The notes under the pieces were generated by a model. It searched no databases, was not told where the DNA came from, and saw only the letters and a list, made by a program, of their open reading frames with translations. Below, piece by piece: positions 4,612 through 50,134 of a stretch of DNA of 64,000 nt. The stretch lies in contig OZ076411.1 of NCBI GenBank assembly GCA_964187785.1, forward strand, positions 4,898,001 through 4,962,000, written 5' to 3'. The DNA comes from Amphiscolops sp. MND2022. Taxonomy: Eukaryota. Made by a program: the position numbers and the translations under genes. Numbering within the stretch: the first letter of the stretch is position 1; every line of letters begins with the position of its first letter.

Positions 4612-6487
4612 TGTCGCGACCCCAGAGGTGCCACGGAAATCATATGACAAGAGGAACGCCTGAAGAAGGAAGTGAGGAAACTGACCAGGTCAAGTCAGAA
4701 TCGCCATGAACAAATCTAAAATAGAAGACCAATAAACAACCTGATACTATTTAAATAACACGCAAAAGTACATTTCCTTCTTCTGTGCCGTACCTAAAAT
4801 AATAGATATGTAAATAATTATATATATTAATAGTGAACGCAGTGTTTGTTTAGCCAACGCGCTGACTGAAATCAATTCGATCGACGCGTCGACTGGGGAC
4901 TCGCCTCAGTGGCAGCAGTAAATTTCAATAAATCAACCTGTATTAGCCAATCAGATTTGAGCGCAGTTAATACAAATTGAAGAACTGAGGCAACGTCCCA
5001 GGCAGCTTACCAGTCCGCTGAAGCTGGGACGCTTGCTCAGTCAATCTACCTAATCAATCAATCATTAATAATCGATGCTAATTTTTGGATGAACTTTCCG
5101 CAGCTTAAAAGAAGCTATATACCAAAAGAACATCCAATGAATAATAATCGACGAAGCTTGAAGTATCTTTAACGTGCTCAATCCACCTTGTATTTGAGTC
5201 AACTTCCCAGGCAAAGCGCTAACTTTCTCTAATAAGACAATAGCCTGGACAGATGACCGAACGTATTTAATTGATACATGTCTTATAGTTAACCGAATAA
5301 CAACGTTGCCCCTGATAAACGTGATATTTGATAATAATATAGTAAAACAACCCCCAGTGCTACTTTTTCAGTCCCCACATGCAGTGTTTTGTTAATATAT
5401 AGTTGAGTCAATCGCCCGGTCAACCGGCCAGGCTACTCTAAATGAAACTCGTTACCTGGAGTTCGCCCAGGATTTTGTTGTTAGCTTCAATTACAGCGCC
5501 AATTAACGGCCATAATCATCTGATCTAGAAGAAATCAGTGCTGTTAATTTATTTATTTGATGTTCCTCTTAATTAACTAGCAGTAAAATTTGGGATTATT
5601 CGATGATAATTTCACTTTCCTTTCCCGCTTCAGTAGCTAGGTTCATGAATTTTCAGTGCCAACTTCGGTTCGGCGTCCTGAATTGGCGGGGAATGAAGAA
5701 GAAGTAACGCGGAATTGGGACTCGGCAGGAAGTGTATCCCACTTTTCCTTTGAAGTGAGAGCCCATTCCCGAGGAAGCGGACCTAATTTGGACTTCCTTG
5801 CCTCGGATGGATGCCGAGCTGAACAAGGTGTGAATTCACGCGCGGGATTTATCCCGCGTGTCTAGCGAAAAGTATTTATACCTGAAGCGGGTTAAGGGAA
5901 GGACCAGAATATTTTATGATTTTTGCAGATCGTTCACTTTCACGGTTGAATATTTTCGTAATTTTCGCTTACTTTGATAATTGTTGCCTTTAAAATTTGT
6001 TTGTTATTCTCCTTCCCAGTTTCATAGTGAAGACTTGGATATTAATCATTTGACTAATGGTATCGTTTGGGAATAGTTTAAGGCCTACAATCGCCAATAA
6101 TATTTAATTCAGCTGTTTCCTAACTCTAAAATTTTCCCTGAAAAATGCCCGAAAAAACCCAGAAAAGAAAGCTACGGAGTGACCAGAGTACTAGTCAAAT
6201 GGATGTAGAAATAGCTAGTTCGACTAACGACGAAAATGTCTTGCTATCAGATAGAGATTTTGAAGATATCTCTAGTAAAGTCGAAAATAGATTCTCCAAG
6301 CGTCTTAGGGACACTGAAATAAACCAACGTGAAATTCTAAAGCTAATCGAAAATTTGTCATCCAAAGTCGACAACTTAGCTAACGTAAATCCTGGACAGA
6401 ATTCCTTGACATTCGAAACTGGAATCAGTGAAATCCCTAATGACGAATTAGAAGAAGTAGAACCCGCAAGGAGTGTTAACTCCAACA
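4612..6487 (+). repeat. 5' LTR of element 1 (1876 bp)
   Basis: Matches 18033-19914 with about 12 substitutions and 3 small indels counted by eye. Confidence 0.97.
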
Positions 6488-7558
6488 TGGTGACAGGAGT
6501 CCTTAACGAACCAACGACCAGCAATAACACCCATGCCCGATCTTCAAGCCTGCCACCCCCAAACCAGAGGCACTCAGACGAAATTATAGACAAACTACTA
6601 GAATCACTATACGCAACACACAAACAAGCTCCAAATCTCCCTCGCTTACCGAAGGCCCTAGCAACAACGATGCCAACATTCGACGGTAAGACAGAAAAAT
6701 TTGAACTCTTCGAGGACCTGTTTCAAACTAGCCTGAAGGTCCACCCACAAATAACGGAACAAAAGAAAATACATTATTTTCACTCGCTCCTGCGAGGAGA
6801 CGCCTTGCAAACGTTTCGCAATATGACTGAAACAACCAAAACCAACCTAAGCGACATTATAGCTGCATTCAGAAGAAGATATGTCAAAACACAATCGGTG
6901 GCCACCGCCAGATGTAAGTGGGAAAACCTTACATTTGACCCCGCCAACCAAACTTTCCAAGACTTCTTGGAGAACTACCAAAAGCTAGCCCAGGAGGCAT
7001 ACGCGGAAGATGCACCCAGATTCATTGAGACCTCCTTTTACGCGAAAATGCCCACTCACCTTAAAAGAGTACTAAATCAAGCTCGCCTCGAAACGGCATC
7101 CTATGAAACAATGGTACAACACTTAGAGAGGGAAATGGAGCTTAACGGATTAGCGAACCCAGATTCTACGACACTTACGGGCATACATAACGTAGAACCC
7201 ACCAACAACCACAACCAGAAACGACCCCCAAAAACCGCAAGCACATGTTTTGGTTGTGGACATCAAGGCCATCTCCTCCGCAACTGTAGGAAAACAAATA
7301 GAGATAAGCGAAACCAAAAGACCACCAACACAACTGTCACCAATCCATGCGAAACATGTGGCAAACTAAGCCACGAAACAAAGGACTGCTATTCAGGAGC
7401 GAACTGGGCAAACCGCCCCACATGGTGGAAGACACCTAAACCAACAGGCTCCAACAGCATCCCCCTACCGCAACAAACAACAAGTTCTACAACAACCTCA
7501 AACAAACCAGCAACCACAAACCGTGGTACAACAATCCAACCAGCCAAAAAACTATTAA
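6145..7558 (+). CDS. gag: Gag of element 1 (two zinc knuckles); ATG lies inside the 5' LTR
   Basis: PTFDGKTEKFELFEDLF capsid-like block; knuckles CFGCGHQGHLLRNC and CETCGKLSHETKDC; inferred native end QPKNY* at 7541-7558, bypassed in this copy by an extra A at ~7475-7477. Confidence 0.85.
6488..6500 (+). promoter_or_regulatory. Primer-binding site TGGTGACAGGAGT (probably tRNA-Leu)
   Basis: Directly after the LTR end; identical in element 2; one mismatch from the tRNA-Leu-type PBS TGGTGTCAGGAGT. Confidence 0.8.
7546..7552 (+). promoter_or_regulatory. -1 ribosomal frameshift slippery heptamer A AAA AAC
   Basis: Just before the native gag stop; pol is in the -1 frame; same heptamer in elements 2 and 3. 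Confidence 0.75.
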
Positions 7559-10500
7559 AGCCACGTCTTCGCTTCGGGGACTACACCGATTTCAGATACT
7601 ACACCATATCTGAACCCCCGAAGGACTTCGACAAAGAATTGTTTATGGAATGCTCTGGAGAACCATCAGTCGACTGGCAGCGACGATGGCTCATCCGACG
7701 TCTCATTAAACTCAATAAAAACACCCTCGACAAACTCCCCTACCCTGACCGGTACACCCAAAACCCTACCCACTACAACTCCACCCGAAGACCACTACTT
7801 CCCAGCTCCACACCCGAAACTTACATTTATGACCCCGACTTTCAATGTGACCCGTACTACAACGAAACTCTCTACGACACAGAAAACCTTGTCTTCAGAC
7901 AATCTATCAATGTACCGTTTCACGAATTCATAGCCAGAACCAACATGGACATCTCAACAGCTCCAAAAAAGAAAGACGACACAAATCATACTCCCGAACC
8001 ACAGGCTGAAGAAGAGCACGACAAGGAAATCACAGTGATTGTGTCACCATCGACAACACCCCTCAAGTCGATACTCAGACACAACAACGCATCGCCACTG
8101 ACTGTACAACAGTCACCCAAGAAACTCCCAGCCACCTCCAACAAAATCCGGGCAGCTATGACATCGTCTCCCTCTAGCCCAGAGAGCCCCGAACACCGAT
8201 ATTCCACCCATGAATCCCTGGGAAACAACAAAGAAGCCGGGGACCTCATACAGGCAAATCAACCTGCAACAAATCCCCGGACCCGCCGCGTTAAACGAAG
8301 ACTAACCAGTGAGTTCAATCTAACAGAGAAACCCAATCCTACAACACATAACTTTCCCAGTGAAACCCAAACCCCCACCAACGAGACACACAAACCAGAA
8401 CAAGATGAGGATTGGATACACACTAACAAACAACTTAACGAAATCGCAATCACAGATCCAGAAACGAGTGAAAAGGGCATACCAATATTCTCTGCCATCC
8501 ACCTAAAAAAGAAGCGAAAGATGCTTTTCGCCCCAATGGACTTCAACAATTTATCCGTAGACGCACTCGTTGACTCGGGAGCACTCGTCAACTGCCTACC
8601 GGAAAGCGAACTCCAGAAGATTAAATCAGTCAGCCCAGACAACATACTCAAAGAAATGGACCCACCTGACCTTCAAACTACAAGTCGCAAACGGCGACAT
8701 AGAAACACCGACGAAAACCGTCCAACTCCAATTTGAACTAGGAGATTGGACGTTCAAAGAGACGTTCATTGTAGCTACAAAAATGACAGGTCCTATCCTT
8801 GGGCTAACTTTCCTCAAAAACAACAGCGCCATCTTAGACGTAAGCCAGGCCCTGCTACATTTCCCACACCTGACCTACGCAATCGCTGCCGATGACAATG
8901 AGACAGTCTCACGTCACCATAAAGTGACCATCAAAAACCAACTCACTATCATGCCCGACCAGTGCATGACAATCGAAGCTGGCATTAACCTCCGCACTAT
9001 AACTAACACTACAGGAATCATCCACCCAACCGAGCAGTACCCTGGAGAACACCAACTAGTAGTGGCCAGCTCCCTATCTACGGTCTCAAACTCGAAAATC
9101 GAAATACGAGTCACCAATACATCACCGAATCCTTTCACCCTCAAAAAGAATGCCAACGTCGCGGAATTCACCATACTGTCACCCCAAGAAGCCAAACAAC
9201 TCCACCCTCTCAACTCTGCAGCTCTCAAGGTACTAGCGGAAGACAACACAGAACAGGCTCTCGAGTATGTCAACGAACTCTTGAAATCATCCGAAAAACC
9301 CCAGACAAATCAAAACTTCTGGTTCCCCACACCAGACAACCCGGGAGACTCATCGACACACACTCCCATCAAGAGCCGAATCCTCAGAGAAATAGAAGAA
9401 CTGGAAAGCATCCAGAAACTAAACCCACACAACAGTCCCGAAGATAGAGCAGCCTTCTTAGCCAACTTCAAATGGACCGACTCACAACTTAGCGACGAAG
9501 ACAAAAAGGACATCGAAGAAATCCTTGTCGAATACAACGACATCTTTGCAAGGCACCGCCTTGACATTGGAATCAACAATGAATTCAAAATAAAACTCAC
9601 CCCCAAATCAGAACAACCTGCGTACACCCAAAGCTTACCCTGCCCAGTCAATCTGAAGGAGGATCTGACAGTTGAGCTAGCACTGATGCACTACTACGGC
9701 ATCATCACAACTCTTCCCTTCAGCAAGTACGCAAGCCCAATCTTCGCGCAAAGAAAACCCAACGGACGTCTTCGCCTCCTCGTTGACCTAAGAAAGATCA
9801 AAACCTTATATCTGACGATTATATAAACAACAACCACCCAGTGAGCACCCTCTCGGACGCTGCGCAGCACCTAGCCGGAAAGAAACTGTTCTGCAAGCTT
9901 GACTGCTCGCAAGCCTACCATGTCCTGCAAATGGCGGACCAGAAATCAGTGGAACTCCTGGCGTTCAACTTTGCCAGTCGGACATTCGCCTACCTGCGAC
10001 TCGCACAAGGGCTCAGCAGATCCCTCTCTTCCTTCTCGAGCTTTATGCGGGAGTACCTCGATCGAGTCATAAAAGCTGACAAGTGTGCCCAATACGTTGA
10101 CGACATCGGGATAGCAACCCATACTGCCGAGGAGCTGAAGAACAACCTGCGTGAGGTCTTCCAGTGCATTAGGGAAGCAGGTCTGCGTCTGACAATGGCC
10201 AAATGCCAGTTCGGTGCCAAGGAAGTTGAATTCCTTGGACGAACAGTATCACCCGAAGGCATCGCCCCACAGTCCCACAAGATCAAAAATTACCTCCAAA
10301 AACTGTCGTTCCCAAAGACCAAAAAGGGCCTACAAAGGTACATCGGTTTCGTTAACTATTATCGGAACTACATACCTCGCCTCTCCGAAAAAATAGCACC
10401 CTTTCACGAATTGGTCAAAGCGGACAAGCCGATCAAAATAACACACGAAATCATCGCGACATTTGAACACATTAACAAGGCACTCGACAATGCTTGTGGA

Positions 10501-12921
10501 CTATGGCTGAAACAGCCCCTACCAAACAAGCAATACGTCCTCATGACAGACGCGAACTTCAAGAATGCCGGCTATGCCTTAATGATCGAAGAAAACGCTG
10601 ATGAAAAACTGACTTCAGTCAAAAAGTCATATGCCCCAGTCGCGTTCGGATCTAAAACATTCTCTCCGTCGCAAATCAAAATGTCGATATATGCCAAAGA
10701 ATTCCTGGCTATATATTTTGCCTTCATGGAATACAGCCACATTTTGTGGGGATCGACCAAACCAGTCATCGTCCTAACAGACAACAAATCTGTTACACGA
10801 TTTTTCCAGACCAAAATAATACCGCCAGCTTTGTGGAACGCCTGCGATTTTGTCCTACAGTTTAATTTTACAATCGCCCACGTCCCAGGAAGGATGAACA
10901 CTGCCGCCGATTTCCTCTCACGACTTGACCTGGACCCAAAAGAGAAAGTCCAACTCTTAATAAGAGACGACATTCAAACCGCACCAATAGAAGTGCACAT
11001 TCAATCTTCCAACGTAGCCGAAGAAGAGCAATTCTACTTCCTACCCGATGACAACATCGAAACGGAAGAGCAGATTTGGGAGAGGAAACAAAGAGCCCGT
11101 AAAAAGATCTTAAAGAACGACACCCCACAAACGCCAGAAGAAGAAACAAACGACGCCACGACCCAATCAGAAGAAACCACCATCGTATTTCAAACGGAAA
11201 TATCAAGACGTACTGAAAATCCAGAAGAGAAGGAAAGAACCTTCCCTCGCGATATGCGACACCAGCAGGACCAAGACAAGGTCCTCCGAAATTATAAACT
11301 ACGTCTCCTCAAAGAACCATACGACGAACACCTAATGGCCACAGACCACAGGGCAATCCACTACACCGCGCAAGAATCCCGAATCATACTCAAGGACGGA
11401 CTGCTATACCGGCAGTACTTCGGAGAGACCGGCGCAGTCAAATACCTACAGGTCTTACTCCCAGAACAACTCGTTGACTCGTTCATCGAAGCCCACCATG
11501 GAATGCACGACAGACATCCCGGAATAACTAAAGCAATACAACAGTGCAGAGAAAAATACTACTACCCAAATCTTGCGGCCAAAATAGCCAAACACATCAA
11601 CCAATGCATGAAATGCATGCAAACAAAACGAACAGACAATCGCCTCCTCACACCGCCAATGATTAATACATCAAAACTGGCAATGGGACCAGAAGATGCC
11701 TTACAAATGGATATCGTCCCATTCGATGAACCATCCAACGGATTTACAGCAATAGTCACCGCAAAGGACATATTTTCACGCTACCTATTCACATACTGCG
11801 TTACCAGAATAGATGCAAAGACAGTTGCAAGAATACTAGTGGATATCATGACCAGACACGCCTACCTCCCTACCACAATCATAACCGACAAAGGAACCCA
11901 ATTCATGTCAGAAGTAGTGGCCGACACCACACGAGTGCTGGGCATCCAACTACGACACGCCACAACAAAGCATGCCCAAACAATAGGCATCCTGGAACGT
12001 TGCCACGCATCCCTGAAGGAAGCCCTGAAAATCTCAACAGGAGAAAGGAGAACAATGTGGCACCAATTCGTACCTGCAGCCACCCTCAATTATAACACAA
12101 CCTACCATTCAGCGATAGGGTGTGAACCCAGTCGAGTGTTCCATGGTAGAGTTCCATACAATATTCTGGACCTCAAATTCGGTCTCAAACCAAACCAAAA
12201 CAGGAACCCGACAACGGACGTAGGCGAAGAAGTCGTCCAGAAAACCCGGATGATACACGAATCAGTGAGTAAACACCTTCTCCACTCCTACATAAAGTAC
12301 AAACAGTACTACGATAAAAAAGCTTCTGCCCACCCCTTAACAACGAATGATTACTGTTATGCCCTACACCCTCAGGCAAACACACAGGGATCAAAACTAC
12401 CCTTCCGAGAATACTTATGGACAGGGCCATTTGTAGTAGTCAAAACCCTTCCTAACAACAACTACCTGATCCGCAAGTTGCAAACCAACAAAACACAAAT
12501 CCTACACCGGATACGCCTGAAACCGTGCCCTACTAAAGAACGCCTACCAGACATTCAAGTCCAATCTAAAGACTTCCAACCAGACAATGAAGTCGAGATT
12601 TTACATGACGACTTATACGCCCTGGCATGGCAGTCTGGGTTTGAACACTTCGTGATGTCACCCGAACACAAAGCGAGTAACGAACCGGAGATTACACCAG
12701 CTGACAGGGAAGACAACCCGGAAACTGCCGCCCAGGACGTTGACCCAGACCCCCCTCTAGAAAGCCAGCCAGACCAACCGGAAATCGCACCCGAAACCGA
12801 CCCTAACCCAGAACCCAGTTCTCCCCGGAAAGGAAAATACAACCTACGCAGTAACCCCCCTTCAAATTGGAAAAGAGATTATGCTTATTACGACTCCGTG
12901 GTCGTTGACACAAACGAATAG
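7546..12921 (+). pseudogene. pol: Pol of element 1 (spacer, PR, RT, RNase H, IN) with frameshifts at ~8666-8671 and ~9802
   Basis: DSGA protease, YVDD RT, TDAN RNase H, HHCC zinc finger, integrase core and WTGPF (GPY/F) motif, spread over ORFs 6145-8736, 8570-9826 and 9841-12921. Confidence 0.93.
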
Positions 12922-13212: not shown

Positions 13213-16200
13213 CTAGCATTTCTTTACAGGAGTCGAATCTTTCCCTCCAGAACCTGACTCTTGCGAAGCACGTCGAGCTTCTCGTTTCTGCCTCAGCATC
13301 CGAGTAACATCACGGGAAGAAGAAGGAGAATACGACAGAGCAGCAAATAAAGGAGAAGCCTGAGGAGAAACAGCAGACTCCGTACTACTTCCTGCAACAG
13401 CAACAGCGGCAGACACACCAACTGACAATGGGGACACAGATGGATCCGCAACCACTCCAAGCTCCACCGACGTTTGAGGACTGGCACCAGCAACTGACAA
13501 TGTCGTAGAGGACGATAACCCAGTACCGGCACGACGACGCCACTCCGCAACTTGTCCTAAGTAATACTCATCAAACCGATCCCGCAAACCGCGATAAAGA
13601 TCTTGACGATTGAGTACATAAAGTGGCCGCCATGGAGCGAAACTCTCATTGTTCAAGAAATCCTTCCCCACAGGCAAATTGGCCTTTAACTCAAGCAAAC
13701 AGTCTTTCGTCAACAACTCGCCGGAATTGAACCCGGGAGCAGAAATAAACGACTGCACAGCGAAGATGGAAGACAACAAAATCTTCTTGGGGACCCGAAC
13801 ACCGCTCAAAGAGAACTCCACGTCTGGATAACGCACCTCACGAGGAATAGCAACCAAAGAAGCCAACTGAACCACATGCGATAAATTCCCGCGACAGCCA
13901 AAAGCCTCAGCCTGCTGCATGAACACGAAAGTGTCCGTGATGGTGCTCACAACACGCCGATTACGACGACGAAGATCCACCAGGAAGGACTTGAACTCAT
14001 TTCAAGCACCCTCAGCTACAACATTCGTCACTCGCCCACAATCTTGAAAGCAAGCCATCAGCCCCCGGAACAGCTCCACAGTATAATTCTCATCACCCAG
14101 AAGCAACATATCTGGCGCAAAACAACTCAGATTAGATGCCAATTGCGAGAGGACAAACGGACAACGTGCCAAAACTTTCAGAAATTCCATCAGTAGACCA
14201 TGGCAGTCTCGCAAGAAAGATCGTCGACGAGAGTCAGTAAACCCAGTCATAGCAATGCCGAAAATGCGCTCCCCACGGAAACAATCGACATAAGCCACAT
14301 TAGGCCAAGTATTCAGAGGTCGACCAATGTATTCGCTCCAAGAGTCAATGTCGGGGAGGTCAGACAGTTTCTTCACTTTGCTTAGGACACTCCAATAAAA
14401 GAAACAAAATTCGCCATAAGAGCGACAGCTGTAATCATAAATATCCTGCGCAGAAAGTTTCTGGAAATTAGCCTGGAAGCATGACACCAAAAGGTGCAGC
14501 AAGCTCAAACGGGGCAACACCTGGGCATCAGACAGGACCATTTGATTCAAATCAGCTGGCGTCCTACTGCGACTGGCAGGAACAACTGACGACTCTTTCA
14601 GAAAGGACTGGACATCACCCCAATTGCAGATCAATTCATCCAGTACTGTACACAAAGAAGCGAAGGGCACTACATTTCGCTGAACACAGCGGCGCAACTC
14701 ACACATGCCCATAAGCCAGGGCTGATGCGACGCCTTCCCCAAACGAAGAAGAAGATACTCAACGATTGAGAAAGGGTCCAGGGATCCAGAGCTCGGCCCA
14801 GAAGCCTCACGAACATGCTCTTTAAACATCTCCACAGAATATTCCATCATCAGAAGTGGCACAGGACGATTATCAGCTTTACACCAGTCAGCGAAGACAT
14901 TGAAAAGGGTTGACGAACACCCTCGCAGTGATACTGGCGTAGTCCCATCAGGAAGAACAGCTAGCAAACGGGACAAACAGGCAATCTCAGCATCACAAAT
15001 ACCAGGTCTCAGAGGCTCCCACAACACACAAACTTCATGCAAACTCCCAGCATTCCAACAGTGCACGAAGCATCGAAGCCCATCACAATCCTCACGGAAA
15101 CTGACACTAAAATGAGCGTCTTTACACCAGGATTGCACACGACGAATGATTCGGGGGTACAAAGTTTGAGTCAGGACGACAAGAGACTCTGTCTTACTCC
15201 AAGTCGAGTGAGCACAGTCGGAGTCAACCAGCATAGTGGTACGAAACTGATTCCACAACCTCCTGAGGAAACTGTGGGACCCACCGCTGCGTAGGAGCTC
15301 AAAGAGACCCCCTACAAGAGTGGAAGCTGGTATATTTGATGCCACGCCAACCAAGGCATCAACCTCATCCTTGACAAAAGGGTTCTTACAGCCGAGCACC
15401 ACAGCTGGAGTTTTCTCAATTTCGACACGCAACTCAGCCGATATAGAAGAGACTTCCACGGCATCAAAGCGTGATGTGTACACGTAATCTTCATGGTCGA
15501 GCCTGTATCGTCGGTCACGCAAGAAATGGGTCTTACTCCCGAAGTGACGCCAAATTTCCGGTTCTCCTTTGCTCAAGAACGAGATATCCTTGCGACAAAT
15601 AGCACAATTGAACCCATTCGGATTCTTATCAGATAGCTGGCTCACAAACAACCGAGGTATAGCATGCTCAGCCATCTCTTTCCGGAGTACATGACGTTCC
15701 GTTTGATGTTTCTTCTTTTTCAAGTATGAAGCATACAGCTTCCGTTTTGCATCGTCCTCAGCCCCAGCCTCAGATTGATCACGATGTAGGCGAATCCCTT
15801 TCGACTTCAGAAGACGCACCACCTCTTCAAGTTCTAAACACACAATTACACATCTATAAACGCAAAACAGAACCAATACTAACTAAAGACCAATAGAAAC
15901 AATCACACTACAAGATATAAACAAACCAGTCGGAAATACAACCAGAAACCATGGAGAATCAATCAGATGAGGAAACAACCAAACAGGCTACTTACGACGG
16001 GTCAAAGAACGATATTCCAGACGCGACTGACTCTTCTCCAAGCGAACAGGAGCTTGACCAAACGCCAACACCTGAGAGGAGGAGAGACACACAGCACCCG
16101 CCGGAACTTCAGATAAACCAGCTGGAACAGAAGCGCAAATACTGAGAGATGATTAATATTACAAACAATACAAGCCACTACCAATCAAAACCTGACAGCC

Positions 16201-17190
16201 AGAAACATATTGAGAATAGTAACCTTTCTCCCATTCATTGTGAAGAACAGAAGCCTCCAGTCCTTCTGTGGGCCGAGTATGCTGAGTACGCTCATGCACA
16301 GCTCTAGAGGAACTTGCACCAACGACGGAAGCCCCGTCATCATCCTGAGAAACACCAGGAACATCGAAGATGGCATCACTTGAAACATCGTCAGCAATTC
16401 GAACTCTACGCCCTAAAACATAACCAACAACTGAACATCAGGGAAAGAAAGGCAATAACCCAGTATCCCAATACCTCCCGACAATCAGCAAAACAAACGA
16501 ATGCCTACCTTCATGAAATACCTTCATTTACCCCAGTAGAAACATTGGATGACTCCTCATCACCAGACCCTGTGCCTCCACCAAGTGACATCTCACGAGC
16601 ACGCTTCGTCGGCTGCTCCTGCGGAACCGAGCCCAAACGCTTACTGCGCCGAAACACGGAAACAGGTGGCAGTTTGCCAGGGGAGAAATCCTCATCTTTG
16701 GAGTCATCAGAGAGACCTACAAAGAATATGAAAGTAGATGAATTGACGCGTCAGAATACTAGCTCTCATAACGTTAACTGGCCATTAACGGAATAGCTAA
16801 GGACTTACCAGGCTGGTCACGGAGGAAGTCTATATCGTGTCTGGCATCACTGCCAGCTGAATGGGTTGAACCACTCTCGCCTTCTCCGTCAGAATCCAGG
16901 GTATCATCAGAAGCGCTATCCCTCTCAGTAGCACTTTCTTCCTCTGAACCATCGTCTACCTCTCCGAATCCAGGAACACGGCGGGCACTTTGTAAGCCAG
17001 GACTGTCGCGATCTTCAGTCCCTTCAACTGTTTCCCCTTCTTTTGAACTCTCCACAATCACAAGACGCGACTCCGACTCATCGCCTTCAACTGACTCATC
17101 CCTCCTTCCCACCTCTGCTTCACTTTCGATAATGCCCACCTGGCGGGACTGCAGAAATCGAGCAGCATCCTCATCAGTAGACTCAGCCAT
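13213..17190 (-). pseudogene. Antisense spliced cargo gene of element 1 (zinc finger plus inactive hAT-transposase-like protein, ~1170 codons), with one in-frame TGA at 14002-14004
   Basis: Proposed exons 17190-16809, 16716-16522, 16412-16224, 16121-15996, 15833-13213; GT-AG introns of 92, 109, 102 and 162 bp, all phase 1; ORFs 14002-15876 and 13213-13980 are in the same frame; homologous to the element 2 gene. N-terminal exon boundaries are less certain. Confidence 0.75.
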
Positions 17191-17491
17191 CTCAACTCAC
17201 GACAAATAACAATGCAAATCTGAAAAGCATCATACAATGTCACCAACAGCATTAAAACGAAGACGTGGCGTAAAACCAACGAAATTATTGATATGAAGTA
17301 TTACTCTTATGACGTAATGGAAGTCATTCAGTCTGCCAGCTGAAAACTTCCTCAATCACGCACGCGGCGTGAACAATTACAAAGAACAGAATTATCATTC
17401 AATTGTTCAGCTATTCCCAAGACGGTCGCTCAGCATTCATCCGCAATCTACAACCATATTACTTTTACCGATTACTTTCATCAGTAATTCA

Positions 17492-18130
17492 ATGGCATCT
17501 CTTGATCTCAACTTATCAAGCGATAGTTTCATTCTGGAACGCGACCAAGCCGCTTATTTGAATAACCCTGCAGCGCAATCAACACCCAAGACCCTACATA
17601 ACCCCTATTCGGCAGAACAATCACCTATTATTCAGGATGTGTACGAAATTATAAATACAGGGAAGGAACACATCGTGCTTTACCACGAAACAGCCCCAGC
17701 CTCAATACTATCAACGGCACAAGAGGACACACTCCCGATCAGAAGATTCACCAATGTCAACCCGATTATACCAGATGACATATTTATGAGCCCACCGAGA
17801 AATTATGACAACATGAATAGCTGGCTATACAGTCCCAACGACGGGGCAATGAGCCCAATTTCTGATACCAGCTCAATTGGCTATTTCTCGGGAAGTGACT
17901 GGACAACTGACTCGTCCTGGTTCTCCTATGATTCATAAATACAATCAGTGTTCCAACAACCAATTTCGTCGCCGTTTAGACCAGTTTCCCCACTCCCTCC
18001 TATACCGGACGCCCCTCACGAAAGCCGGGGACTGTCGCGACCCCAGAGGTGCCACGGAAATTATATGACAAGAGGAACGCCTGAAGAAGGAAGTGAGGAA
18101 ACTGATCAGGTCAAGTCAGAATCGCCATGA
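17492..18130 (+). CDS. Sense ORF3 of element 1 (acidic, Ser/Pro-rich, ~212 codons, in-frame TAA at 17936-17938), running through the PPT into the 3' LTR
   Basis: ORFs 17369-17938 and 17948-18130 are in frame; first ATG 17492; ends 98 bp into the LTR; equivalent ORF in element 2. Confidence 0.6.
18020..18032 (+). promoter_or_regulatory. Polypurine tract of element 1 (GAAAGCCGGGGAC)
   Basis: Immediately 5' of the 3' LTR. Confidence 0.65.
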
Positions 18131-19914
18131 ACAAATCTAAAATAGAAGACCAATAAACAACCTGATACTATTTAAATAACACGCAAAAGTACATTTCCTT
18201 CTTCTGTGCCGTACCTAAAATAATAGATATGTAAATAATTATATATATATATTAATAGTGAACGCAGTATTTGTTTAGCCAACGCGCTGACTGAAATCAA
18301 TTCGATCAACGCGTCGACTGGGGACTCGCCTCAGTGGCAGCAGTAAATTTCAATAAATCAACCTGTATTAGCCAATCAGATTTGAGCGCAGTTAATACAA
18401 ATTGAAGAACTGAGGCAACGTCCCAGGCAGCTTACCAGTCCGCTGAAGCTGGGACGCTTGCTCAGTCAATCTACCTAATCAATCAATCATTAATAATCGA
18501 TGCTAATTTTTGGATGAACTTTCCGCAGCTTAAAAGAAGCTATATACCAAAAGAACATCCAATGAATAATAATCGACGAAGCTTGAAGTATCTTTAACGT
18601 GCTCAATCCACCTTGTATTTGAGTCAACTTCCCAGGCAAAGCGCTAACTTTCTCTAATAAGACAATAGCCTGGACAGATGACCGAACGTATTTAATTAAT
18701 ACATGTCTTATAGTTAACCGAATAACAACGTTGCCCCTGATAAGCGTGATATTTGATAATAATATAGTAAAACAACCCCCCAGTGCTACTTTTTCAGTCC
18801 CCACATGCAGTGTTTTGTTAATATATAGTTGAGTCAATCGCCCGGTCAACCGGCCAGGCTACTCTAAATGAAACTCGTTACCTGGAGTTCGCCCAGGATT
18901 TTATTGTTAGCTTCAATTACAGCGCCAATTAACGGCCATAATCATCTGATTTAGAAGAAATCAGTGCTGTTAATTTGTTTATTTGATGTTCCTCTTAATT
19001 AACTAGCAGTAAAATTTGGGATTATTCGATGATAATTTCACTTTCCTTTCCCGCTTCAGTAGCTAGGTTCATGAATTTTCAGTGCCAACTTCGGTTCGGC
19101 GTCCTGAATTGGCGGGGAATGAAGAAGAAGTAACGCGGAATTGGGACTCGGCAGGAAGTGTATCCCACTTTTCCTTTGAAGTGAGATCCCATTCCCGAGG
19201 AAGCGGACCTAATTTGGACTTCCTTGCCTCGGATGGATGCCGAGCTGAACAAGGTGTGAATTCACGCGAGGGATTTATCCCGCGTGTCTAGCGAAAAGTA
19301 TTTATACCTGAAGCGGGTTAAGGGAAGGACCAGAATATTTTATGATTTTTGCAGATCGTTCACTTTCACGGTTGAATATTTTCGTAATTTTCGCTTACTT
19401 TGATAATTGTTGCCTTTAAAATTTGTTTGTTATTCTCCTTCCCAGTTTCATAGTGAAGACTTGGATATTAATCATTTGACTAATTGGTATCGTTTGGGAA
19501 TAGTTTAAGGCCTACAATCGCCAATAATATTTAATTCAGCTGTTTCCTAACTCTAACATTTTCCCTGAAAAATGCCCGAAAAAACCCAGAAAAGAAAGCT
19601 ACGGAGTGACCAGAGTACTAGTCAAATGGATGTAGAAATAGCTAGTTCGACTAACGACGAAAATGTCTTGCTATCAGATAGAGATTTTGAAGATATCTCT
19701 AGTAAAGTCGAAAATAGATTCTCCAAGCGTCTTAGGGACACTGAAATAAACCAACGTGAAATTCTAAAGCTAATCGAAAATTTGTCATCCAAAGTCGACA
19801 ACTTAGCTAACGTAAATCCTGGACAGAATTCCTTGACATTCGAAACTGGAATCAGTGAAATCCCTAATGACGAATTAGAAGAAGTAGAACCCGCAAGGAG
19901 TGTTAACTCCAACA
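18033..19914 (+). repeat. 3' LTR of element 1 (1882 bp)
   Basis: Matches 4612-6487; followed by TSD AAGTT. Confidence 0.97.
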
Positions 19915-23959: not shown

Positions 23960-25576
23960 TGTAAGGACTACGGTCGTCTGTGTCTCTTAAATTACACGCG
24001 GACCGTGAGTCCTTTTTTGTAAATTTAGTTTTGAGCCCATTTGATCCTTCTCTATCTTCCTGATTATTTTGTGACGAACCGGACTCAGTGTCCCTCTGTC
24101 CTGAAGACAGCGTACCCATAGCATTTTGAATCTTTGGGATCACACTATTATTGATGGCAGAATTGATCGCTCTAGTTATCTGGACTTGTAGGAAGTGAAT
24201 CCGTCACTTGGGATAACCTGAGATTCAATTCCTCTGATAACAGTGCCATAGACTAGAAGTGTCTATCTGACCTAGTGGTCTCAATTCTACAGCCAATGTT
24301 TCTATTCTCAATTTGCTGTGAAGGAATTTTGTAAGTAAGAATGGCCTCGATGTCACCTTGGCCGAGAGAATGATTTAATACAATCTCGAATTTCTTTTCT
24401 ATATAACTTGAATTGATTCCACCAAGCATCATGTCCCTGTCGTTATCATTGGACATCGTGTCCATTTCTCTAGAACGTCTAATTCAGTCTTTTGTCTTCT
24501 TGTTGAAGAAAGTATTTGTAGGGAAAGAAGTCAATTACCTCTTTTATGGTAAAATAAAGTGAGTTTGACAATCGGTCTCAATAATAGAGTTACAAATCAA
24601 AATTGTGTCCTCGGGACTAGGAGTCCCGAGTATTTATACTAAAATATGCATGACATACAAATTATAGGATATCATCAATCTAATTTTAGAGCAATTGCTC
24701 TAAAAATAGCTACAAAGGACTGCCTGTCCTTAAAAACACACAATGACGTAGTTCTAAATATAGCAGCAACATGACGCAGTCAATAGATATCTATATATAG
24801 TAACAGCGTCAACAAATACCCACGTGGCCCTGAAGGCCGTCTAAATGGAACATGTTTAATTACACTACATGTAAAGCATCCTAAATTAAACTACATGTAT
24901 AGCATGTGGAAAGGAATGGCAAGTAGACACAAGGGCCGTAACCTATAATAGACGACATAAGACTGGCTATTCATGGGAATTAGTTTCCCGTCTGAGATAG
25001 CTTCAGAGAAGGGGGGAAGGACTGAAAGTCCAGCACAATTTCGATAAATGAATTTCAACCACGAAAATGTAAGTATGTATGTAGCAACAATTTGTTATAG
25101 GCCTTAAGAATCGTAAAAAACTATTAATTGCATCTTTGCATAATATATTGCACTTTCATCTTTAAATTGGACTGGTAGTCCCACTGCCATAACACCGACA
25201 ATACAAATGACTGCTATACTAGATAGGAGTGTTCAGCAAGCGTACTGCGCTGTGATTGGTTAATATTTTACCGGACTAGCTGTCCACTAGCCATTAGTGA
25301 GAGGTTTATTTAAGTCGACAGCCGTGAATGGCCTTTAAATGAAAGTTAACAGCACTTAAAATCTAAATTGGGACTCAATGTCCAACTGCCGCAAACGTAC
25401 TGGTTTATTAGTTGACAAGCGGTGAACGGCCATCGCGTCTAATAATCAAAAGCACTAACTCAGAGCACTCATACTAATACTGCAATTTGATTGGTCTAAA
25501 TTCAACCGGACTGGCTGTCGAAGACGACACAAAGGGACATAAAATAAAATAAGATCACAGGTGGCAGCCTGCGACA
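23960..25576 (-). repeat. 3' LTR of element 3 (1617 bp)
   Basis: TGTCGC...CCTTACA on the minus strand; matches 28558-29887. Confidence 0.9.
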
Positions 25577-25922
25577 CTCCCCCTGGCATAAGGAGAAACG
25601 TTCCTGCTGACCCCACACTGACACGGTCCATGTGGTCGTCTTCATCGCTTGATAGATTACTGTGCCGTCCGACTTTGGTTATTAGGACAATAGGTCTTTC
25701 AAATGATGTCCGAAACACATTGCAACCCTTTATATGCTGTAACGAGAACATTTTACATGGATAGAAGCAACAAACTGTATGGCCTTCATGTCCACAACAT
25801 TTTGCAACATCCATAATACAAGTGACATGGTTACATAATAATCTGCATGAGTACAAAAGTGGTATTGGTTTATGGCCATCATGTCCTTTAAAACAGGTGA
25901 ATGGATAAAATATCGGGTGGGC
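25455..25922 (-). pseudogene. Cys/His-rich ORF3 remnant of element 3, crossing the PPT into the LTR
   Basis: Open frame with GHDGH and GHEGH motifs, many Cys and NLSSDEDD; same position as ORF3 of elements 1 and 2. Confidence 0.45.
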
Positions 25923-27699
25923 CTATTTTACTAATATCAGCGATTGGTGGAATGTCCTTGACGTTAATGGCCAAGGGACATCAAGGACTGGTTTCAAAGC
26001 ATCGATAAGCATTGATTAAAATACATTTCAATTGCTTCATATTAGCTCAGGAATTGATAAATTAATAGCATCGCTTCAAAAAAAGGAAAACCACAATGGC
26101 TGCCCGTCCTATTATAACGTCACTAAATACTGCATGGCCAGAGTGGCCTTTAATTCTATTTACTGCGTACAATTAATAAGAGCACTGTGAATGGCGGCAT
26201 GTGATTGGATGATTTAAATTAAGGACCTGTGGTCCACTAGGCCAAGATAAAAGACATTTGAACATTAAAAATACAGCGCTGGAAACAGTAGCAACAAAGT
26301 TTTGTAATAATAAGGCCTTGTCGTCCAAGCGCCAACTACTGCCTGGCTGTCTACGGCGCATGGCTGTACTCGGTTTCTCAGGAGATTCTGCTCACAGATT
26401 TTGATAAAATCCATAAGTTGACACGTATTTGACATCAAGTCCAAATAACTGTAAATTTGACAGTAAATTGTATAGCCACGAACTCCAATTACTTTATCGA
26501 CATTGTGTCAGCCTTTGTTACATTGCCCAATTCTCCACTCAATTCAATATCTTTATTATTCATTCGTATTACTCAGTATTTAGCCAACGTCGCATTTAAT
26601 CTTCTTGTATTTAATCCACAGTCAGTCTTCTAGTCGGTTTTTCTTGTAGTCTTCTTTTATATTATTTTCATGGGACGTTCTGTGCAATCATCCTTACTCC
26701 CGTGGGTTACCTTGGGCTCGCCCGGATAATCGACATCGAGTCCCCACTTAGCGGTTCTCTGCCAGTTCCCGTCTTATTCACCTTCTTTGGAAGAAATCAC
26801 AGTCCTTTGCCTTGCTACTCTTCACTTGCCATCAGAGTGGACTCAAGGTCTCTTTGCCAACTTTCTCTTGGATTTGCGGATAACACTTTCAGCAGTGACA
26901 CACAGTCAAATTGTTCTCTTCAGGAATCACAACCAACAGTCCGAAATTTTCAATAGACGAAACAGTCATCATTTTCCCAGCAGATATCCATATAGGTGTG
27001 TTGTTATGAAGGTTTTCTTTCATTAGTTTCGATTTTTGATTTTGAACTTGAAGAGGCTTGATCAAGGCCTTCATGTTGTTCAAGTACTTCCTGTCCATAT
27101 AACAGAAGTGTTCACTTGAGTTCGATTCTATCTACTCCGGAGACGTTATATGCAGTAAATGGACTTTAATTAAGGAAGGTTCCCGCTTGAATTCATTTCG
27201 TTCTCTTCAGACATGTCGTCTGAGAACAACTTGAAGAAAATCCAACACAACATTCTGAAGATAATGAGGTCCAGCAGTTCACTGGATTCCTGGTGACTGA
27301 AGATACTGCTGAGTCAACTGAGCGATCTGCTGAGCCAGTTTGCCGTCAAGCGGACATACTGACCCCTAGTCCATCAACTGAAGATAGTGTTAGCGCGTCA
27401 TTCGGGGCTACAGAGGGAAACTGGGCCAAGTTCATCTAAATTCTAAATGTACATAGTGTACATTTGTTTCTAATTCATTTCTGTTGTATTTCAAACTGGT
27501 TTTGTATTTGTTGTATTATTGTGCTTGCAGACTGTTTGTGGCTTTTATTGTATTATTCGCCACTGAGTCCATTTGTTGATGTATTTGTCCGAAGATATAA
27601 TTTGTCCATGAGAAGTCAAAAGATATATTCAGAGCAGTCCCAAAAAAAATACATGTCCTCGTGGGCGAACAGAGAAAAGGGGACTAGCAATTCAATTTT

Positions 27700-28150
27700 C
27701 TGGCTAGTGATTGTATTCCTGAGGATAGTTGGGGATGGGGTAGATTGAAGATTGTATTTTCTCCTCTGGGACTCGTATTTTCATCAATTTCTTCATTTTC
27801 CGATATTCCGGGCACGGTAATATCTGCGCCTCCGTTCGGAACCATTTCCGCATCGTCTAGTTCATTTGTGACGTTATATTCCTTTTCCGTCCTACTAGTC
27901 GATTTATTCGGTGGGGACGCCGCGTCACGGTTGTTGGCCGGTGTCGGCTGTATTTCATTCTCGATGACGTCATTTTCACTCATTTTCTGGCTGCAGCGTT
28001 CATCTTCGTGGACGCTGCTGCGTTCAGTTTCAATGACGTAATGGTCCACACCGCCACTTGCGTCGTCGTTCGGCAGGCGCGTAGCCACCCGGTCCAATTT
28101 TCTTTTCTCGGCTCAAATACTTTGAAATCAAAGTCTGATTCCCACAAAAT
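27700..28150 (-). pseudogene. Integrase C-terminal tail remnant of element 3
   Basis: NDLYTILWESDF resembles DDLYALAWQSGF (element 1) and DDWYAQAWETEF (element 2). Confidence 0.7.
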
Positions 28151-28321
28151 TGTATACAAGTCGTTTTCTGTTCGTCGTGTAGACGTGTTCGGATCATTTT
28201 CATTATTTGTAAGTGGATAGTTTCGATAGTATTTGTAACTGGAAAAGACGTAATGTCGTTTAACTGGAAAAGACGTAATGTCGTTCTGACATGGGTTCAT
28301 TCATTTGGAGTCGTGGCGCAA

Positions 28322-28557
28322 TTAGTTTTTTGAATTTGGCTTCTGAGAGACAGTATGACCTGATGTGGCACTTGACTGTTTGTCATTGATATTGGGGGAT
28401 GCCTCGTCTCCTGGTCTGGGTGATGGTTTTGTTTTTGCTTTATTTCTCTTGGGGCGTAAATGCGCACCTGCGCCTTTCCAACATTTTTCGGCTGTGTGGT
28501 TTGTTTTACTGCACGTTGGGCATTCAGGGTATGTTGGACGCTGGGGCTTTTTGTCAC
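28322..28557 (-). pseudogene. gag: Gag C-terminal remnant of element 3
   Basis: CPTCSKTNHTAEKC knuckle; ends SKN* with A AAA AAC (28325-28331); -1 frame reads KKLIAPRL. Confidence 0.8.
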
Positions 28558-29887
28558 ATAACAGTGCCATAGTCTATCTGACCTAGTGGTCTCAATTCTA
28601 CAGCCAATGTTTCTTTTCTCAAATTGCTGTGAAGGAATTTTGTAAGTAAGAATGGCCTCGGTGTCAACTTGGCCGAGAGAATGATTTAATACAATCTCGA
28701 GTTTCTTTTCTATATAATTTGAATTGATTCCACCAAGCATCATGTCCCTGTCGTTATCATTGGACATTGTGTCCATTTCTCTAGAACGTCTAATTCAGTC
28801 TTTTGTCTTCTTGTTGAAGAAAGTATTTGCAGGGAAAGAAGTCAATTACTTCTTTTATGGTAAAATAAAGTGAGTTTGACAATCGGTCTCAATAATAGAG
28901 TTACAAATCAAAATTGTGTCCTCGGGACTAGGAGTCCCGAGTATTTATACTAAAATATGCATGACATATAAAATATAGGGTATCATCAATCTAATTTTAG
29001 AGCAAGTGCTCTAAAAATAGCTACAAAGGACTGCCTGTCCTTACAAACACACAATGACGTAGTTCTAAATATAGCAGCAACATGACGCAGTCAATATATA
29101 TCTAGATATAGTAACAGCGTCAACAAATATCCACGTGGCCCTGAAGGCCGTCTAAATGGAACCTGTTTAATAACACTACATGTAAAGCATCTTATATTAA
29201 ACTGCATGTATAGCATGTGGAAAGGAATGGCAAGTAGACACAAGGGCCGTAACCTATAATAGACGACATAATACTGGCTATTAATGGGATTTAGTTTCCG
29301 TCTGAGATAGCATCAGAGAAGGGGGGAAAGGACTGAAAGTCCAGCACAATTTCGATGAATGAATTTCAACCACGAAAATGTATGTATGTATGTAGCAACA
29401 ATTTGTTATAGGCCTTAAGAATCGTAAAAAACTATTAATTGCATCTTTGCATAATATATTGCACTTTCATCTTTAAATTGGACTGGTAGTCCCACTGCCA
29501 TAACACCGACAATACAAATGACTGCTGTACTAGATAGGAGTGTTCAGCAAGCGTACTGCGCTGTGATTGGTTAATATTTAACCGGACTAGCTGTCCACCA
29601 GCCATAAGTGAGAGGTTTATTTAGGTGGACAGCCGTGAATGGCCTTTAAATGAAAGTTAACAGCACTTAAAATCTAAATTGGGACTCAATGTCCAACTGC
29701 CGCAAACGTACTGGTTTATTAGTTGACAAGCGGTGAACGGCCATCGCGTCCAATAATTAAAAGCGCTAACTCAGAGCACTCATACTATTACTGCAATTTG
29801 ATTAGTCTAAATTCAACCGGACTGGCTGTCCAAGACGACACAAAGGGACATAAAATAAAATAAGATCACAGGTGGCAGCCTGCGACA
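28558..29887 (-). repeat. 5' LTR of element 3, with its 3' end and PBS deleted
   Basis: Matches ~24238-25576; joined directly to the gag C-terminus. Confidence 0.85.
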
Positions 29888-37231: not shown

Positions 37232-39359
37232 TGTCACGACCCGCTCCCGGTCGGGACTTCACTTGCTGTGGAGGAATACCGCAATTCACGCGAGGAAAAG
37301 GACACGGCAGAGCTACACAACATTAAGTAAACTCTATTTAATGCCTTACCTTTTATCCAAACAGCAGCACGAATTAAGTTTAACGGAAGCGCAACGTAAA
37401 TTATTCAAAAATGATTTAGACAAAAAGAAAATTTCCGGTTTAATGATTTCACATGCAATCGTTTCATCACTTCCGGTTTCGACTGATGAAAATTCCATGC
37501 CAATCTAAATATTAAAAAAGAAACATCCTTAACACTGGGATCAATTTTTCTTTTCTCCACACTAAAATGAAAACGCTAAAACAATATTTAATTCCGTGAT
37601 CCCAACGGAACGCAGACGATCTAAAATGAAAGAACATACAAAGAGAATGGTGGAATTGTTTTCCAATGATTGATCAGTTGTGAATATCCACTTAAGAATG
37701 CAGTTAAGCAACTTAAGACAAAATTTACAATGCAATGACAACGTCACTAAGCTTGATTGAAAAGTAAATGTTTCTATTTTTACGGACCAATAGCGTCGCC
37801 TTTCACCATCCCTAGTTACCATAGCAACGCCAATTGAGAGAGAGAATAAGAATGAATTTGTTAACGCTGTCCGCTCCGTCTCCGCAAGCAAGCACTGCTC
37901 AACTATACCTAATCTTAATACGTACGGAGCGATTACGGAGCAAATTGTAATGCGAAGAAGCTATACCCAATCTTAATACGTAGGGAGCATTTACGGAGCG
38001 TTTACGGAGTGAATTGTAATAGGTGAAGTTATACCTAATGTTAATACATGTAAGACAAGCGTGGAAAATTCTAAAACACAGAAGCTATCCTAATACATTA
38101 GGATGTTCCTGAGGTTATGTAGAATTATTCCGAGATATTTAAATTATCATAAGGTTTTACTTTTTCCACCCGGATTTTCTCCGTTTTAGTGATCGATTAA
38201 AAGGTTCGTGTTGTTAATTAGGATAAAAGCGAATCCTTACAAAAGGGTGCTTCTTCCTATTCTGTAGAAGAATATTTTGTGTATTAATCACGTTGTAGAA
38301 ACGTTGCTTTCGTGCATATGCTATTTAATTGTTGCATTTGTCAGTGTTAACTAACTCAATTCATGTAAAGTTAGATAGATTATTGTTGGTTGTTTTCTGA
38401 TTTACAATAATCAGGTTTTTTAGTTCGTATTCATCACCTTTCCAGCATCATTTGTTCCTTCTCAAATATCTCAGTTTATCAATCCAAAATTCTCCCGAGA
38501 TATCTCTGTAACAAATTTTGCTTGTCATTTCTTTTATCGCAAGCTGAAAGTTTACCGCTCGTAAAGTGAATCATCGTTCATGCCCGCGTGCTTTCCGCGA
38601 TAAAGTTTCAACTAGACATTTGTTTTGCCGCCTTTTTCCGCAATCAAACCGGAAATGATGTTAATGAACAAAAATGATTTCAACAAGTACTCCGTAAGGG
38701 ATCCGTGACTAGGAATTTTAAATCATGAACAATTAATAAAAGGGTTGAAATAATAAGGATGATTAAGCATTTTTGTTGAACAAAACCGATTTTAAGGATT
38801 CCTAGGAATTTTTAGGTGAGGAACAAATGATGCTGTGAAAGTATATATACCTAAGGATTTGTAAATCTGTTTAATCTGTTTCCTAATCTACTCCGTTAAT
38901 ACTTCGTTTTGAAAACCATATTTCTTTGAAGAATTCAAATTTTCCAAAGAACAATCACTCTCTCGCTCTGTCTAAAAATGACTACTAGAAGCCAGAAGAG
39001 AAAAGCTATTGAAGAACTAGTTTCTACTGAAATGGAGACCCCAATACCTGAGACTAACCAAAACTTAAAGCCCGTAGTGGGGACGAGTAAATCTCCTAGA
39101 GTAATCACTGAAAATCTAGAGGAAATCAAGTCTTCACTGAGAAAAGAGATCATGTCTGATCTTACCAAAATCTTAGCTGAAAATCAAAAGGAGATGCTAA
39201 AACTAATAGCTGCTCCTGTTAAAAAACAGACCGTCGTAGCAACTACTGAAGAAACAGATTCTGAATCCGAAAATATCCCGGAAAATGCAACTTCGACACC
39301 AATCAAAAATAAAACCGCTGCGACTAATCGAAAAATCACCCCGATAAATAGTCGTAACA
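37232..39359 (+). repeat. 5' LTR of element 2 (2128 bp)
   Basis: Matches 50775-52902 with about 17 substitutions counted by eye. Confidence 0.97.
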
Positions 39360-49548: not shown

Positions 49549-49870
49549 GGAAGTCAGAAAAGATTTTTTACCAACCTGAAACAGAATGAACAAATGCCGG
49601 TTCAGGATGGACGTCATCATCAGTGTAATTAAACACTGTCTCGTTTCCACTAAGGAAGCCGCCGGCAGGTACAGTAGGAGGCACACTTTCTCCATCCATT
49701 TAAGAAATTACCACGTAAAGAATCTTCAGAACAGTCTGAAACAAAGAAAATACATTACCCAAAATTAATCCAAATACACCATCGTTGGAAGCTCATAGTT
49801 TCCAAAAGGACGAAAAATGGTTCAAATTAGTTTGAGATCATAAAGAGGAAGAAAGAGTCAGTTCAAGTCT

Positions 49871-49963
49871 GTGACGTCACACGGAACATCACCGGGAAGA
49901 AATTAGTGACGTCACGACGAAGTTCAAACCTTAACATTTTTATTCCTATGGTTCAGCCAATCA
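49871..49963. promoter_or_regulatory. Candidate internal bidirectional promoter (two GTGACGTCAC CRE palindromes and a CCAAT box)
   Basis: GTGACGTCAC at 49871-49880 and 49906-49915, AGCCAATCA at 49955-49963, between the divergent ATGs at 49548 and 50135. Confidence 0.5.
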
Positions 49964-50134
49964 CAGCGCAGATGGAAGCAAAACGCTTTCCGAGGATAAA
50001 ACGAACCGAAATGAGAAGAAAATTAACAGCCAATGAGAACGCAGGAAAGTCACGAACGGAAGAAAGTTAACCTCTCCACTTGCCGCATTCTAAACGTAAA
50101 GATAAGACAGCTTGTAAAAATCAGAAAACTTAAA

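Follow-up and report, generated by a model that had tools for sequence, protein, structure and literature searches.

A conserved, predicted SUMO-interacting motif in the third open reading frame of one Ty3/gypsy retrotransposon family

Introduction

Accessory open reading frames that run from the internal region into U3 are familiar from HIV nef, MMTV sag and foamy virus bel. Additional ORFs in the env slot are known already, and so are antisense ORFs and viral proteins with a SUMO-interacting motif (SIM). In plants, gene23 of Grande is nuclear and has its own promoter (PMC7264820, PMC11963269), an internal one (PMC7264820), and an internal promoter is also documented for the env of the Tor elements (PMC4402516). 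The field has yet to settle whether retrotransposons of animals code for proteins that counteract silencing; in the review text covered, the plant VANC proteins are the most convincing case of an anti-silencing protein (PMC6719617). In flies, contacts between SUMO and SIMs are central to piRNA-guided silencing (10.1101/2021.07.27.453956; 10.1101/533091), where they recruit SetDB1/Wde (10.1101/533091). A SIM is defined by a four-residue core with at least three V, I or L, which follows psi-psi-x-psi if the motif is parallel, and by flanking residues that are acidic or phosphorylatable and suited to CK2 (PMC12751080). SIMs are loose motifs and arise easily (PMC12751080).

Here we consider a 64,000-nucleotide stretch of contig OZ076411.1 from Amphiscolops sp. 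MND2022 (positions 4,898,001 to 4,962,000), which we call the window. A preliminary description had proposed that three LTR elements in it each carry, in the env position, a disordered, SIM-like ORF3 that ends inside the LTR, and that a SUMO decoy is a testable idea. In the literature listings searched, which cover few subscription papers and no supplements, neither this family nor an LTR retrotransposon accessory ORF with a SIM is described, and the word SUMO is absent from the main text of a 2026 plant TE product atlas (PMC13547354). A near-invariant phospho-SIM in a fast-changing accessory protein of a high-copy family makes the anti-silencing question testable by peptide pull-down.

Results

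The elements of the window

The window holds three LTR elements and one solo LTR:

4612-19914, plus strand: element 1, whole
4612..6487, plus strand: element 1 5' LTR, 99.0% identical to the 3' LTR; TSD AAGTT
6142..12921, plus strand: element 1 gag-pol, PR-RT-RH-IN (Ty3/gypsy order), disrupted by changes of frame near 8561-8736 and 9787-9826
18033..19914, plus strand: element 1 3' LTR
24237..29887, minus strand: element 3, a non-autonomous deletion derivative with LTRs of about 1.34 kb, 96% identical
37232-52902, plus strand: element 2, whole
37232..39359, plus strand: element 2 5' LTR, 99.2% identical to the 3' LTR; TSD GGGGC
38930..45596, plus strand: element 2 gag and pol, with a frame change near 44679-44871, at the integrase end
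50775..52902, plus strand: element 2 3' LTR
55098-57236: diverged solo LTR of the element 2 lineage; TSD CAGAG

Pfam finds RVT_1, RT_RNaseH, Integrase_H2C2, rve, Integrase_p58_C and Retrotrans_gag, the gag with a zinc knuckle, and elements 1 and 2 have LTRs of 1.9-2.1 kb, 5-bp TSDs, TG..CA ends and a common PBS beginning TGG. By domain order, gag and LTR/TSD/PBS structure these two elements are Ty3/gypsy LTR retrotransposons. The three elements of the preliminary description are real, and all the motifs that it quoted are present in the sequence. The pol proteins of elements 1 and 2 are 59% identical across 808 residues. In both elements gag begins within the 5' LTR, with its ATG at 6145 and 38978, about 340-380 bp ahead of the LTR end, and the gag frame runs across the PBS (M-V-T-G-V-L). 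Since gag starts in the 5' LTR and ORF3 ends in the 3' LTR, the LTR is coding at both ends; this, together with a spliced transposase-like gene in antisense, makes for an unusual layout.

Several other features are seen in the window. At 40361-40395, gag and pol overlap by about 40 bp with an A-rich run, which suggests a -1 frameshift site. The PPT stretches (18008-18032, 50750-50774 and 25577-25601) are weakly purine-rich, with 11, 8 and 10 purines per 15, and with so few purines ahead of the 3' LTRs the PPT is atypical. A Gag-like fragment with DUF1759, which we take to be probably of the BEL/Pao type, lies at 20947-22245 on the minus strand. There are a tandem array of an 11-bp unit, TTCATGTATGG-like, at 1908-2149, and a dispersed non-coding repeat family in both orientations (2495-2975, 20284-20697, 23340-23735, 59609-59951). 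The repeats that flank the elements may resemble DNA of acoel flatworms. Outside the elements, at 3059-3090, two CRE sites and a CCAAT box are clustered, possibly as the promoter of an unannotated feature.

Three families of ORF3

The ORF3s and the motifs discussed below are:

17492..18130, plus strand: element 1 ORF3 (family A), interrupted by TAA, with QSTP, many S/T-P sites and a possible N-terminal beta region; no SIM
25455..25814, minus strand: element 3 ORF3 remnant (family C), 119 aa, SIM core absent; terminates 122 bp inside the LTR
50135..50869, plus strand: element 2 ORF3 (family B), 244 aa, intact, disordered; terminates 95 bp into the 3' LTR
50153..50182, plus strand: VIDISSDEEE, psi-psi-x-psi core and Ser/acidic tail (parallel phospho-SIM pattern)
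50369..50383, plus strand: RKINF, PP1 RVxF-like
50735..50869, plus strand: C-terminal module H-C...RGALSRPAPG...CC/CxxC...GRG, spanning the internal/LTR junction

The preliminary description merged these ORF3s, which belong to three families, A, B and C for elements 1, 2 and 3. Homology between them is not found: the best blastp E is 2.3, cross-family HMM searches give none, and the hhalign probability is 0.2% for A-B, 0.1% for A-C and 6.6% for B against the family C relative P0274, where the match spans the SIM stretch only. Common to all three are the position, the Ser/acidic composition and the codon register across the LTR start (GLSRP, ALSRP, GVSQA), a register that would be the same in all three with a 1-in-9 probability by chance alone. 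That each ORF3 crosses the PPT and ends about 95-120 bp into U3 is correct for elements 2 and 3, the PPT being weak. It is not correct for element 1: the stretch at 17492-18130 had been described as one ORF ending in the LTR, and an in-frame TAA at 17936-17938, about 95 bp ahead of the LTR, ends the ORF at 148 aa.

The statement that ORF3 has no transmembrane segment and is not env stands. With hydropathy as the criterion, neither a signal peptide nor a transmembrane anchor is found; the maximum over 19 residues is 0.34 in element 1 and 1.03 in element 2, and values above 1.6 occur in 2 of 123 relatives, both times in aberrant N-terminal extensions. Homology to viral glycoproteins is found neither by the Pfam cut-off nor among PDB sequences nor by Foldseek with a low-confidence model. 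A degenerate env or small fusogen would have the position between pol and the 3' LTR in its favor and nothing else; with no transmembrane stretch in the window copies, such values so rare among the relatives and no Pfam match above the cut-off, we regard it as extremely improbable.

ORF3 of family B as a gene

The ORF of element 2 is as first described, intact and crossing into the LTR. An ATG ORF of at least 244 codons is met in 0 of 1000 resampled 1-kb sequences. In the protein database searched, which holds predicted open frames only, family B has 72 clusters with 839 members, and we call the 22 clusters with at least 10 members high-copy and the other 50 low-copy. The SIM and the LTR junction are in one frame in 21 of the 22 high-copy clusters vs 26 of the 50 low-copy ones (Fisher p 3e-4), as counted with a pattern that overlooked P0029, a full-length low-copy protein. 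Only one high-copy cluster departs from this, P0034, whose predicted protein starts at a later Met. The frame, whose loss among copies the preliminary description had named as speaking against it, is kept in the high-copy clusters of this family.

The 21 high-copy clusters go down to 34% pairwise identity and contain 38 gap blocks, all of them in frame, while the distance from SIM to junction takes 11 values between 177 and 262 residues. In 9 of 9 comparisons the replacements prove more conservative than those of a neutral simulation, and in 5 of these none of 150 runs reaches the observed value, in a set of comparisons that are not mutually independent and with gapped alignment favoring conservative pairs. 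No neutral run out of 150 remains stop-free at 47-60% identity. Of 16 extended predictions, 14 have a Lys codon directly before the conserved Met (AAR-ATG, as at the gag starts). A small hint at the DNA level is that the solo LTR has two differences from the element 2 LTR in the first 23 bases, both at third codon positions of the ORF3 frame. Codon usage favors this frame only slightly, and we give it no weight. Judged at the protein level, family B ORF3 is a protein-coding gene under selection.

Could conserved cis-elements (antisense promoter, PPT, att site) alone account for the ORF, with the protein itself irrelevant? The LTR junction is the top conserved block, the element 1 copy is stopped and the element 3 subfamily (33 members) is amplified with a deleted ORF3, all of which this explanation would accommodate. 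It does not accommodate a frame preserved through all the gap blocks, the enrichment of intact frames in high-copy clusters or the failure of neutral runs to stay stop-free, and elements 1 and 3 are broken in gag-pol too, not in ORF3 alone. We consider it very unlikely.

For the protein itself, AlphaFold gives a pLDDT of 53 and a pTM of 0.14. A profile search of 1.84 billion representatives returns 179 matches; of the 150 listed, the portion displayed consists of apparent family B copies or fragments, and none in it points to another family. An ESM Atlas search with P0072 gives no usable match and a PDB sequence search gives nothing below E 0.05. Four clusters (P0014, P0023, P0024, P0028) have divergent ORF3 bodies with near-identical LTR-encoded tails, which suggests frame-preserving recombination near the LTR junction.

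The SUMO-interacting motif

The preliminary description saw a SIM-like protein in all three elements, and the next point is how far this holds in each family. In family B, VIDISSDEE matches the published definition exactly. The motif [VI]IDISSD is found in 57 of 72 clusters, and in 21 of the 22 with at least 10 members. A strict SIM pattern, defined as the core with at least four D/E/S among the next five residues, occurs in 0.4% of shuffled family B sequences and four times in the 127,996 six-frame residues of the window. In an alignment of 39 sequences (the window protein and 38 full-length matches of 72), VIDISSDE is the second most conserved 8-mer, at 0.96 vs a median of 0.52, and the most conserved one is the LTR junction. 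Because the junction is conserved as DNA, a DNA-level constraint may act on the SIM codons as well. A charge-reversing SSDKE variant is seen in 5 low-copy and 0 high-copy clusters, and divergent variants retain the hydrophobic core and the Ser/acidic tail (LVNISSSSDD). The motif, mostly one copy per protein, sits in a predicted disordered region and its conservation is above that of its flanks. This conservation strongly supports the SIM reading for element 2's family B only, and on the strength of the motif we predict that the family B protein probably binds SUMO.

In family A, the phrase "disordered, SIM-like" is least apt for the very ORF at 17492-18130 for which it was written, since the family has no SIM and is modelled, at low confidence, with a beta-rich N-terminus. 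LDLNLSSDS had been proposed as SIM-like; 0 of the 51 family A clusters (299 members) match the strict or the loose SIM pattern, 1 of 51 matches the reverse pattern, and the RVxF motif is also found in none of the 51. The site varies within the family (FDFNLSSDS, EFDLSSDC, STLNSSTDY). AlphaFold (pLDDT 43) gives N-terminal 85 residues that are beta-rich at low confidence and a disordered remainder, so of the claimed disorder "largely disordered" can be kept, and Foldseek with this low-confidence model gives no match at E <=0.001. Readings of the family A motifs as a beta-TrCP degron or an LIR were dropped as non-canonical or generic. With family A occupying the same slot, SUMO binding is not universal for the slot.

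The stop of element 1 belongs to the copy. Beyond the TAA its frame is open again up to the TGA at 18128-18130, 98 bp inside the 3' LTR, and each of the 6 family A clusters of 10 or more members has an unbroken frame (208-216 aa), which argues for decay at the level of the copy; this copy is also damaged in gag-pol and in the antisense gene. An ATG ORF of at least 148 codons is met in 6 of 1000 resampled 1-kb sequences. The family A frame is kept and its selection signal is weak, the neutral simulation being clear in 1 of 5 comparisons (0/150 runs) and reaching the observed value in 31-66 of 150 runs in the others. An AATAAA is seen at 18152, about 20 bp past the end of the frame and early in the LTR; there is none at the matching place of element 2.

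In family C, the element 3 ORF does end 122 bp inside the LTR with NLSSDEDD in it, as described, and the SIM core is absent: the residues before it are H-S-N-L, one aliphatic of four, and QSTP is absent too. The relatives reveal an internal deletion with respect to a 264-aa form, and the element belongs to an amplified non-autonomous subfamily with deleted ORF3 (P0267, 33 members). A long relative, P0274, begins with IIYISSDEEE and carries CxxCxxC, 1 of 13 matches; it forms a two-member cluster whose E against the query is 3.0, with the link running via P0271/P0272 and a common C-terminal stretch, and the other long relatives are predicted from a later Met, so that the N-terminal motif is not scorable in them. 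P0274 weakly suggests the SIM reading for family C. Pfam gives PP1c_bdg for family C proteins at E 0.11-0.23, not significant.

Other motifs of family B

RKINF fits the published PP1 RVxF consensus, [KR][KR][VI]x[FW] (PMC12723162), and is kept in part of family B only. The loose form is found in 35 of 72 clusters (1.3% in shuffles) and the strict form in 18 of 72 (0.7% in shuffles). Among the 22 high-copy clusters the strict form is in 7 and absent from 15, and the loose form is absent from 6, element 2's nearest subfamily (82 members) among them. In the long subfamilies this motif directly follows an NLS-like patch rich in lysine, which is present in 9 of 22 high-copy clusters and absent in element 2's own ORF3. 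All family B proteins have a Y/F-Y/F-E-E block and, across the LTR junction, a tail rich in Cys/His and RG, and STP and YEEP are conserved as well. The C-terminal module may bind metal or RNA.

These motifs bear on a rival reading of the putative SIM, as a hydrophobic-acidic CK2 patch with a non-SUMO partner, in which case ORF3 would serve chiefly as a scaffold for kinase and PP1 or as a cofactor for the antisense protein. The excess of RVxF-like motifs over the shuffles would be expected of such a protein, as would the head-to-head linkage with the antisense gene (below), and family A retains psi-D/N-L-S-S-D and STP with the full SIM core absent. The family B core, however, follows the textbook psi-psi-x-psi pattern and hardly varies, while several subfamilies can do without RVxF. 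We judge a non-SUMO patch to be improbable and retain the SIM reading for family B.

The antisense gene and expression

Elements 1 and 2 each carry a second gene on the opposite strand:

13213..17190, minus strand: element 1 antisense gene, hAT-transposase-like, with an N-terminal CxxC..H..H finger and an in-frame stop near 14001
17191..17491, no strand: element 1 inter-ATG segment with a CRE-like site at 17310; candidate bidirectional promoter
45756..49699, minus strand: element 2 antisense gene, with minus-strand introns of the GT..AG type; homologous to that of element 1 at 27-31% identity (E as low as 1e-19)
49700..50134, no strand: element 2 inter-ATG segment with TGACGTCA at 49872 and 49907 and CCAAT boxes; candidate bidirectional promoter

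The ESM look-alikes of the antisense gene are FAM200/ZBED5/ZNF862 (0.92-0.88), the named ones having fewer than 170 shared features. A resemblance to hAT-transposase derivatives is suggested, as a lead rather than a firm assignment. Most of the look-alikes are from animals, and together with the DUF1759 fragment they point to an apparently animal host. The residues at the presumed positions of the hAT catalytic aspartates appear to be replaced. A PDB sequence search with the antisense protein gives nothing below E 0.05, and Pfam gives no match at all in the antisense ORFs, TRP28 (PF04195) included.

The antisense gene, which has several exons, and ORF3 are head-to-head in elements 1 and 2, with ATGs about 300 and 435 bp apart. 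Of the 11 CRE sites of the window, 3 fall within the 725 bp between the ATG pairs (P about 2e-4, for a motif picked after inspection). A gene with GT..AG introns in antisense requires its own promoter. The preliminary description had suggested that an acceptor at 17472 could allow env-style splicing. The acceptor-like string is there, but such strings are ordinary: element 1 has 2.5 of them per kb. As a general mechanism, env-style splicing finds no support, since element 2 has no acceptor-like string in the 300 nt before the ATG. Given the head-to-head layout, the CRE sites and the ordinary acceptor, an internal promoter fits better, and it is probably common to ORF3 and the antisense gene.

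Discussion

A model of family B ORF3 can be assembled from these parts. ORF3 is retained by selection in actively copying Ty3/gypsy subfamilies, and would be transcribed from the internal promoter, head-to-head with the spliced hAT-like gene, into an mRNA that ends in the 3' LTR. Its product is predicted to be soluble and for the most part disordered, with short linear motifs strung along it: a CK2-type phospho-SIM at the start and often a PP1-type RVxF and an NLS-like patch. It would act inside the nucleus, where the SIM may dock it on SUMOylated chromatin proteins, for example those that assemble on transposons during silencing. Once docked, it could locally compete with SIM-dependent effectors or recruit a host enzyme, in favor of the element's own expression. 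That the protein is a nuclear linear-motif adaptor docking on SUMOylated chromatin is a reasonable, putative reading, for which we would claim a balanced probability; that it has a local effect on silencing is possible but rather doubtful.

The SUMO decoy of the preliminary description would work differently: abundant ORF3 would titrate SUMO away from the silencing machinery of all transposons. The conserved SIM of family B suits it, and a viral decoy of SUMOylation has been reported (PMC11697363). A plain sponge, though, would have no use for STP, YEEP, RVxF and the Cys/His tail, the SIM is mostly single, and family A has none. The anti-silencing mechanisms described for transposable elements are also narrow in effect (PMC6719617). 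With this narrowness and the multi-motif anatomy, a docking adaptor fits better, and a global decoy seems to us an improbable reading.

Alternatively, the SIM could be real and serve replication rather than anti-silencing, through SUMOylation or turnover of ORF3, targeting to nuclear bodies, integration or particle assembly. Viral SIMs do serve self-SUMOylation, stability and nuclear localisation (PMC12751080), and the many S/T-P sites, the PEST-rich composition and the RG-rich, Cys/His tail would agree with such a role, which we hold to be unlikely. A bolder form of the docking adaptor deserves similar reserve. The two genes under one bidirectional promoter might form a counter-silencing module, in which a SIM (and PP1) adaptor intercepts SUMO-dependent heterochromatin assembly and the hAT-derived zinc-finger protein may target the element's own DNA. 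If true, this speculative and rather unlikely module would give an animal retrotransposon its own counterpart of VANC, one that works via SUMO, with unrelated proteins re-using the adaptor slot in sister families.

How does the locus compare with known systems? HIV nef, MMTV sag and foamy virus bel are unrelated retroviral sequences, and the resemblance is one of layout only. In the plant Ty3/gypsy elements Retand, Grande and RIRE2, as in the elements here, the stretch from pol to the 3' LTR is long and contains a transposase-related ORF in antisense, in their case TRP28 (PMC7264820, PMC11963269). Unlike them, the present elements have an apparently animal host, a spliced antisense gene of hAT-like character, and a second ORF, in sense, that is under selection and enters the LTR; in the text covered of those papers no SIM is mentioned (PMC7264820, PMC11963269). 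In Oikopleura, Tor3b and Tor4b express a third ORF from an internal promoter between pol and ORF3, as we propose here, but their ORF3 is a transmembrane Env glycoprotein and ours is soluble and disordered (PMC4402516). The ORF3s of bdelloid rotifers are, as here, family-specific, exchangeable non-env genes in the env slot; what they encode are folded enzymes (GDSL, DEDDy) or transmembrane proteins whose origins can be traced, unlike the ORF3s of the window (PMC5408684).

For the motifs, the nearest comparison is with viral proteins whose disordered SIM or RVxF regions co-opt host SUMO or PP1, such as ICP0, K-bZIP, LANA and BGLF4 (PMC12751080) and the PP1 adaptor ICP34.5 (PMC12723162). The likeness of family B is in the motifs only. 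ORF3 is without homology to those proteins, has no enzymatic domain and is carried by a retrotransposon. As a functional model for family-specific anti-silencing, and for ORF3 by analogy, we look to VANC of the VANDAL elements, an accessory protein encoded by a transposable element (PMC6719617, PMC13547354). It differs in that VANDAL is a DNA transposon and VANC is folded, MAIN-related, targeted to a DNA motif and acts on DNA methylation (PMC6719617, PMC13547354).
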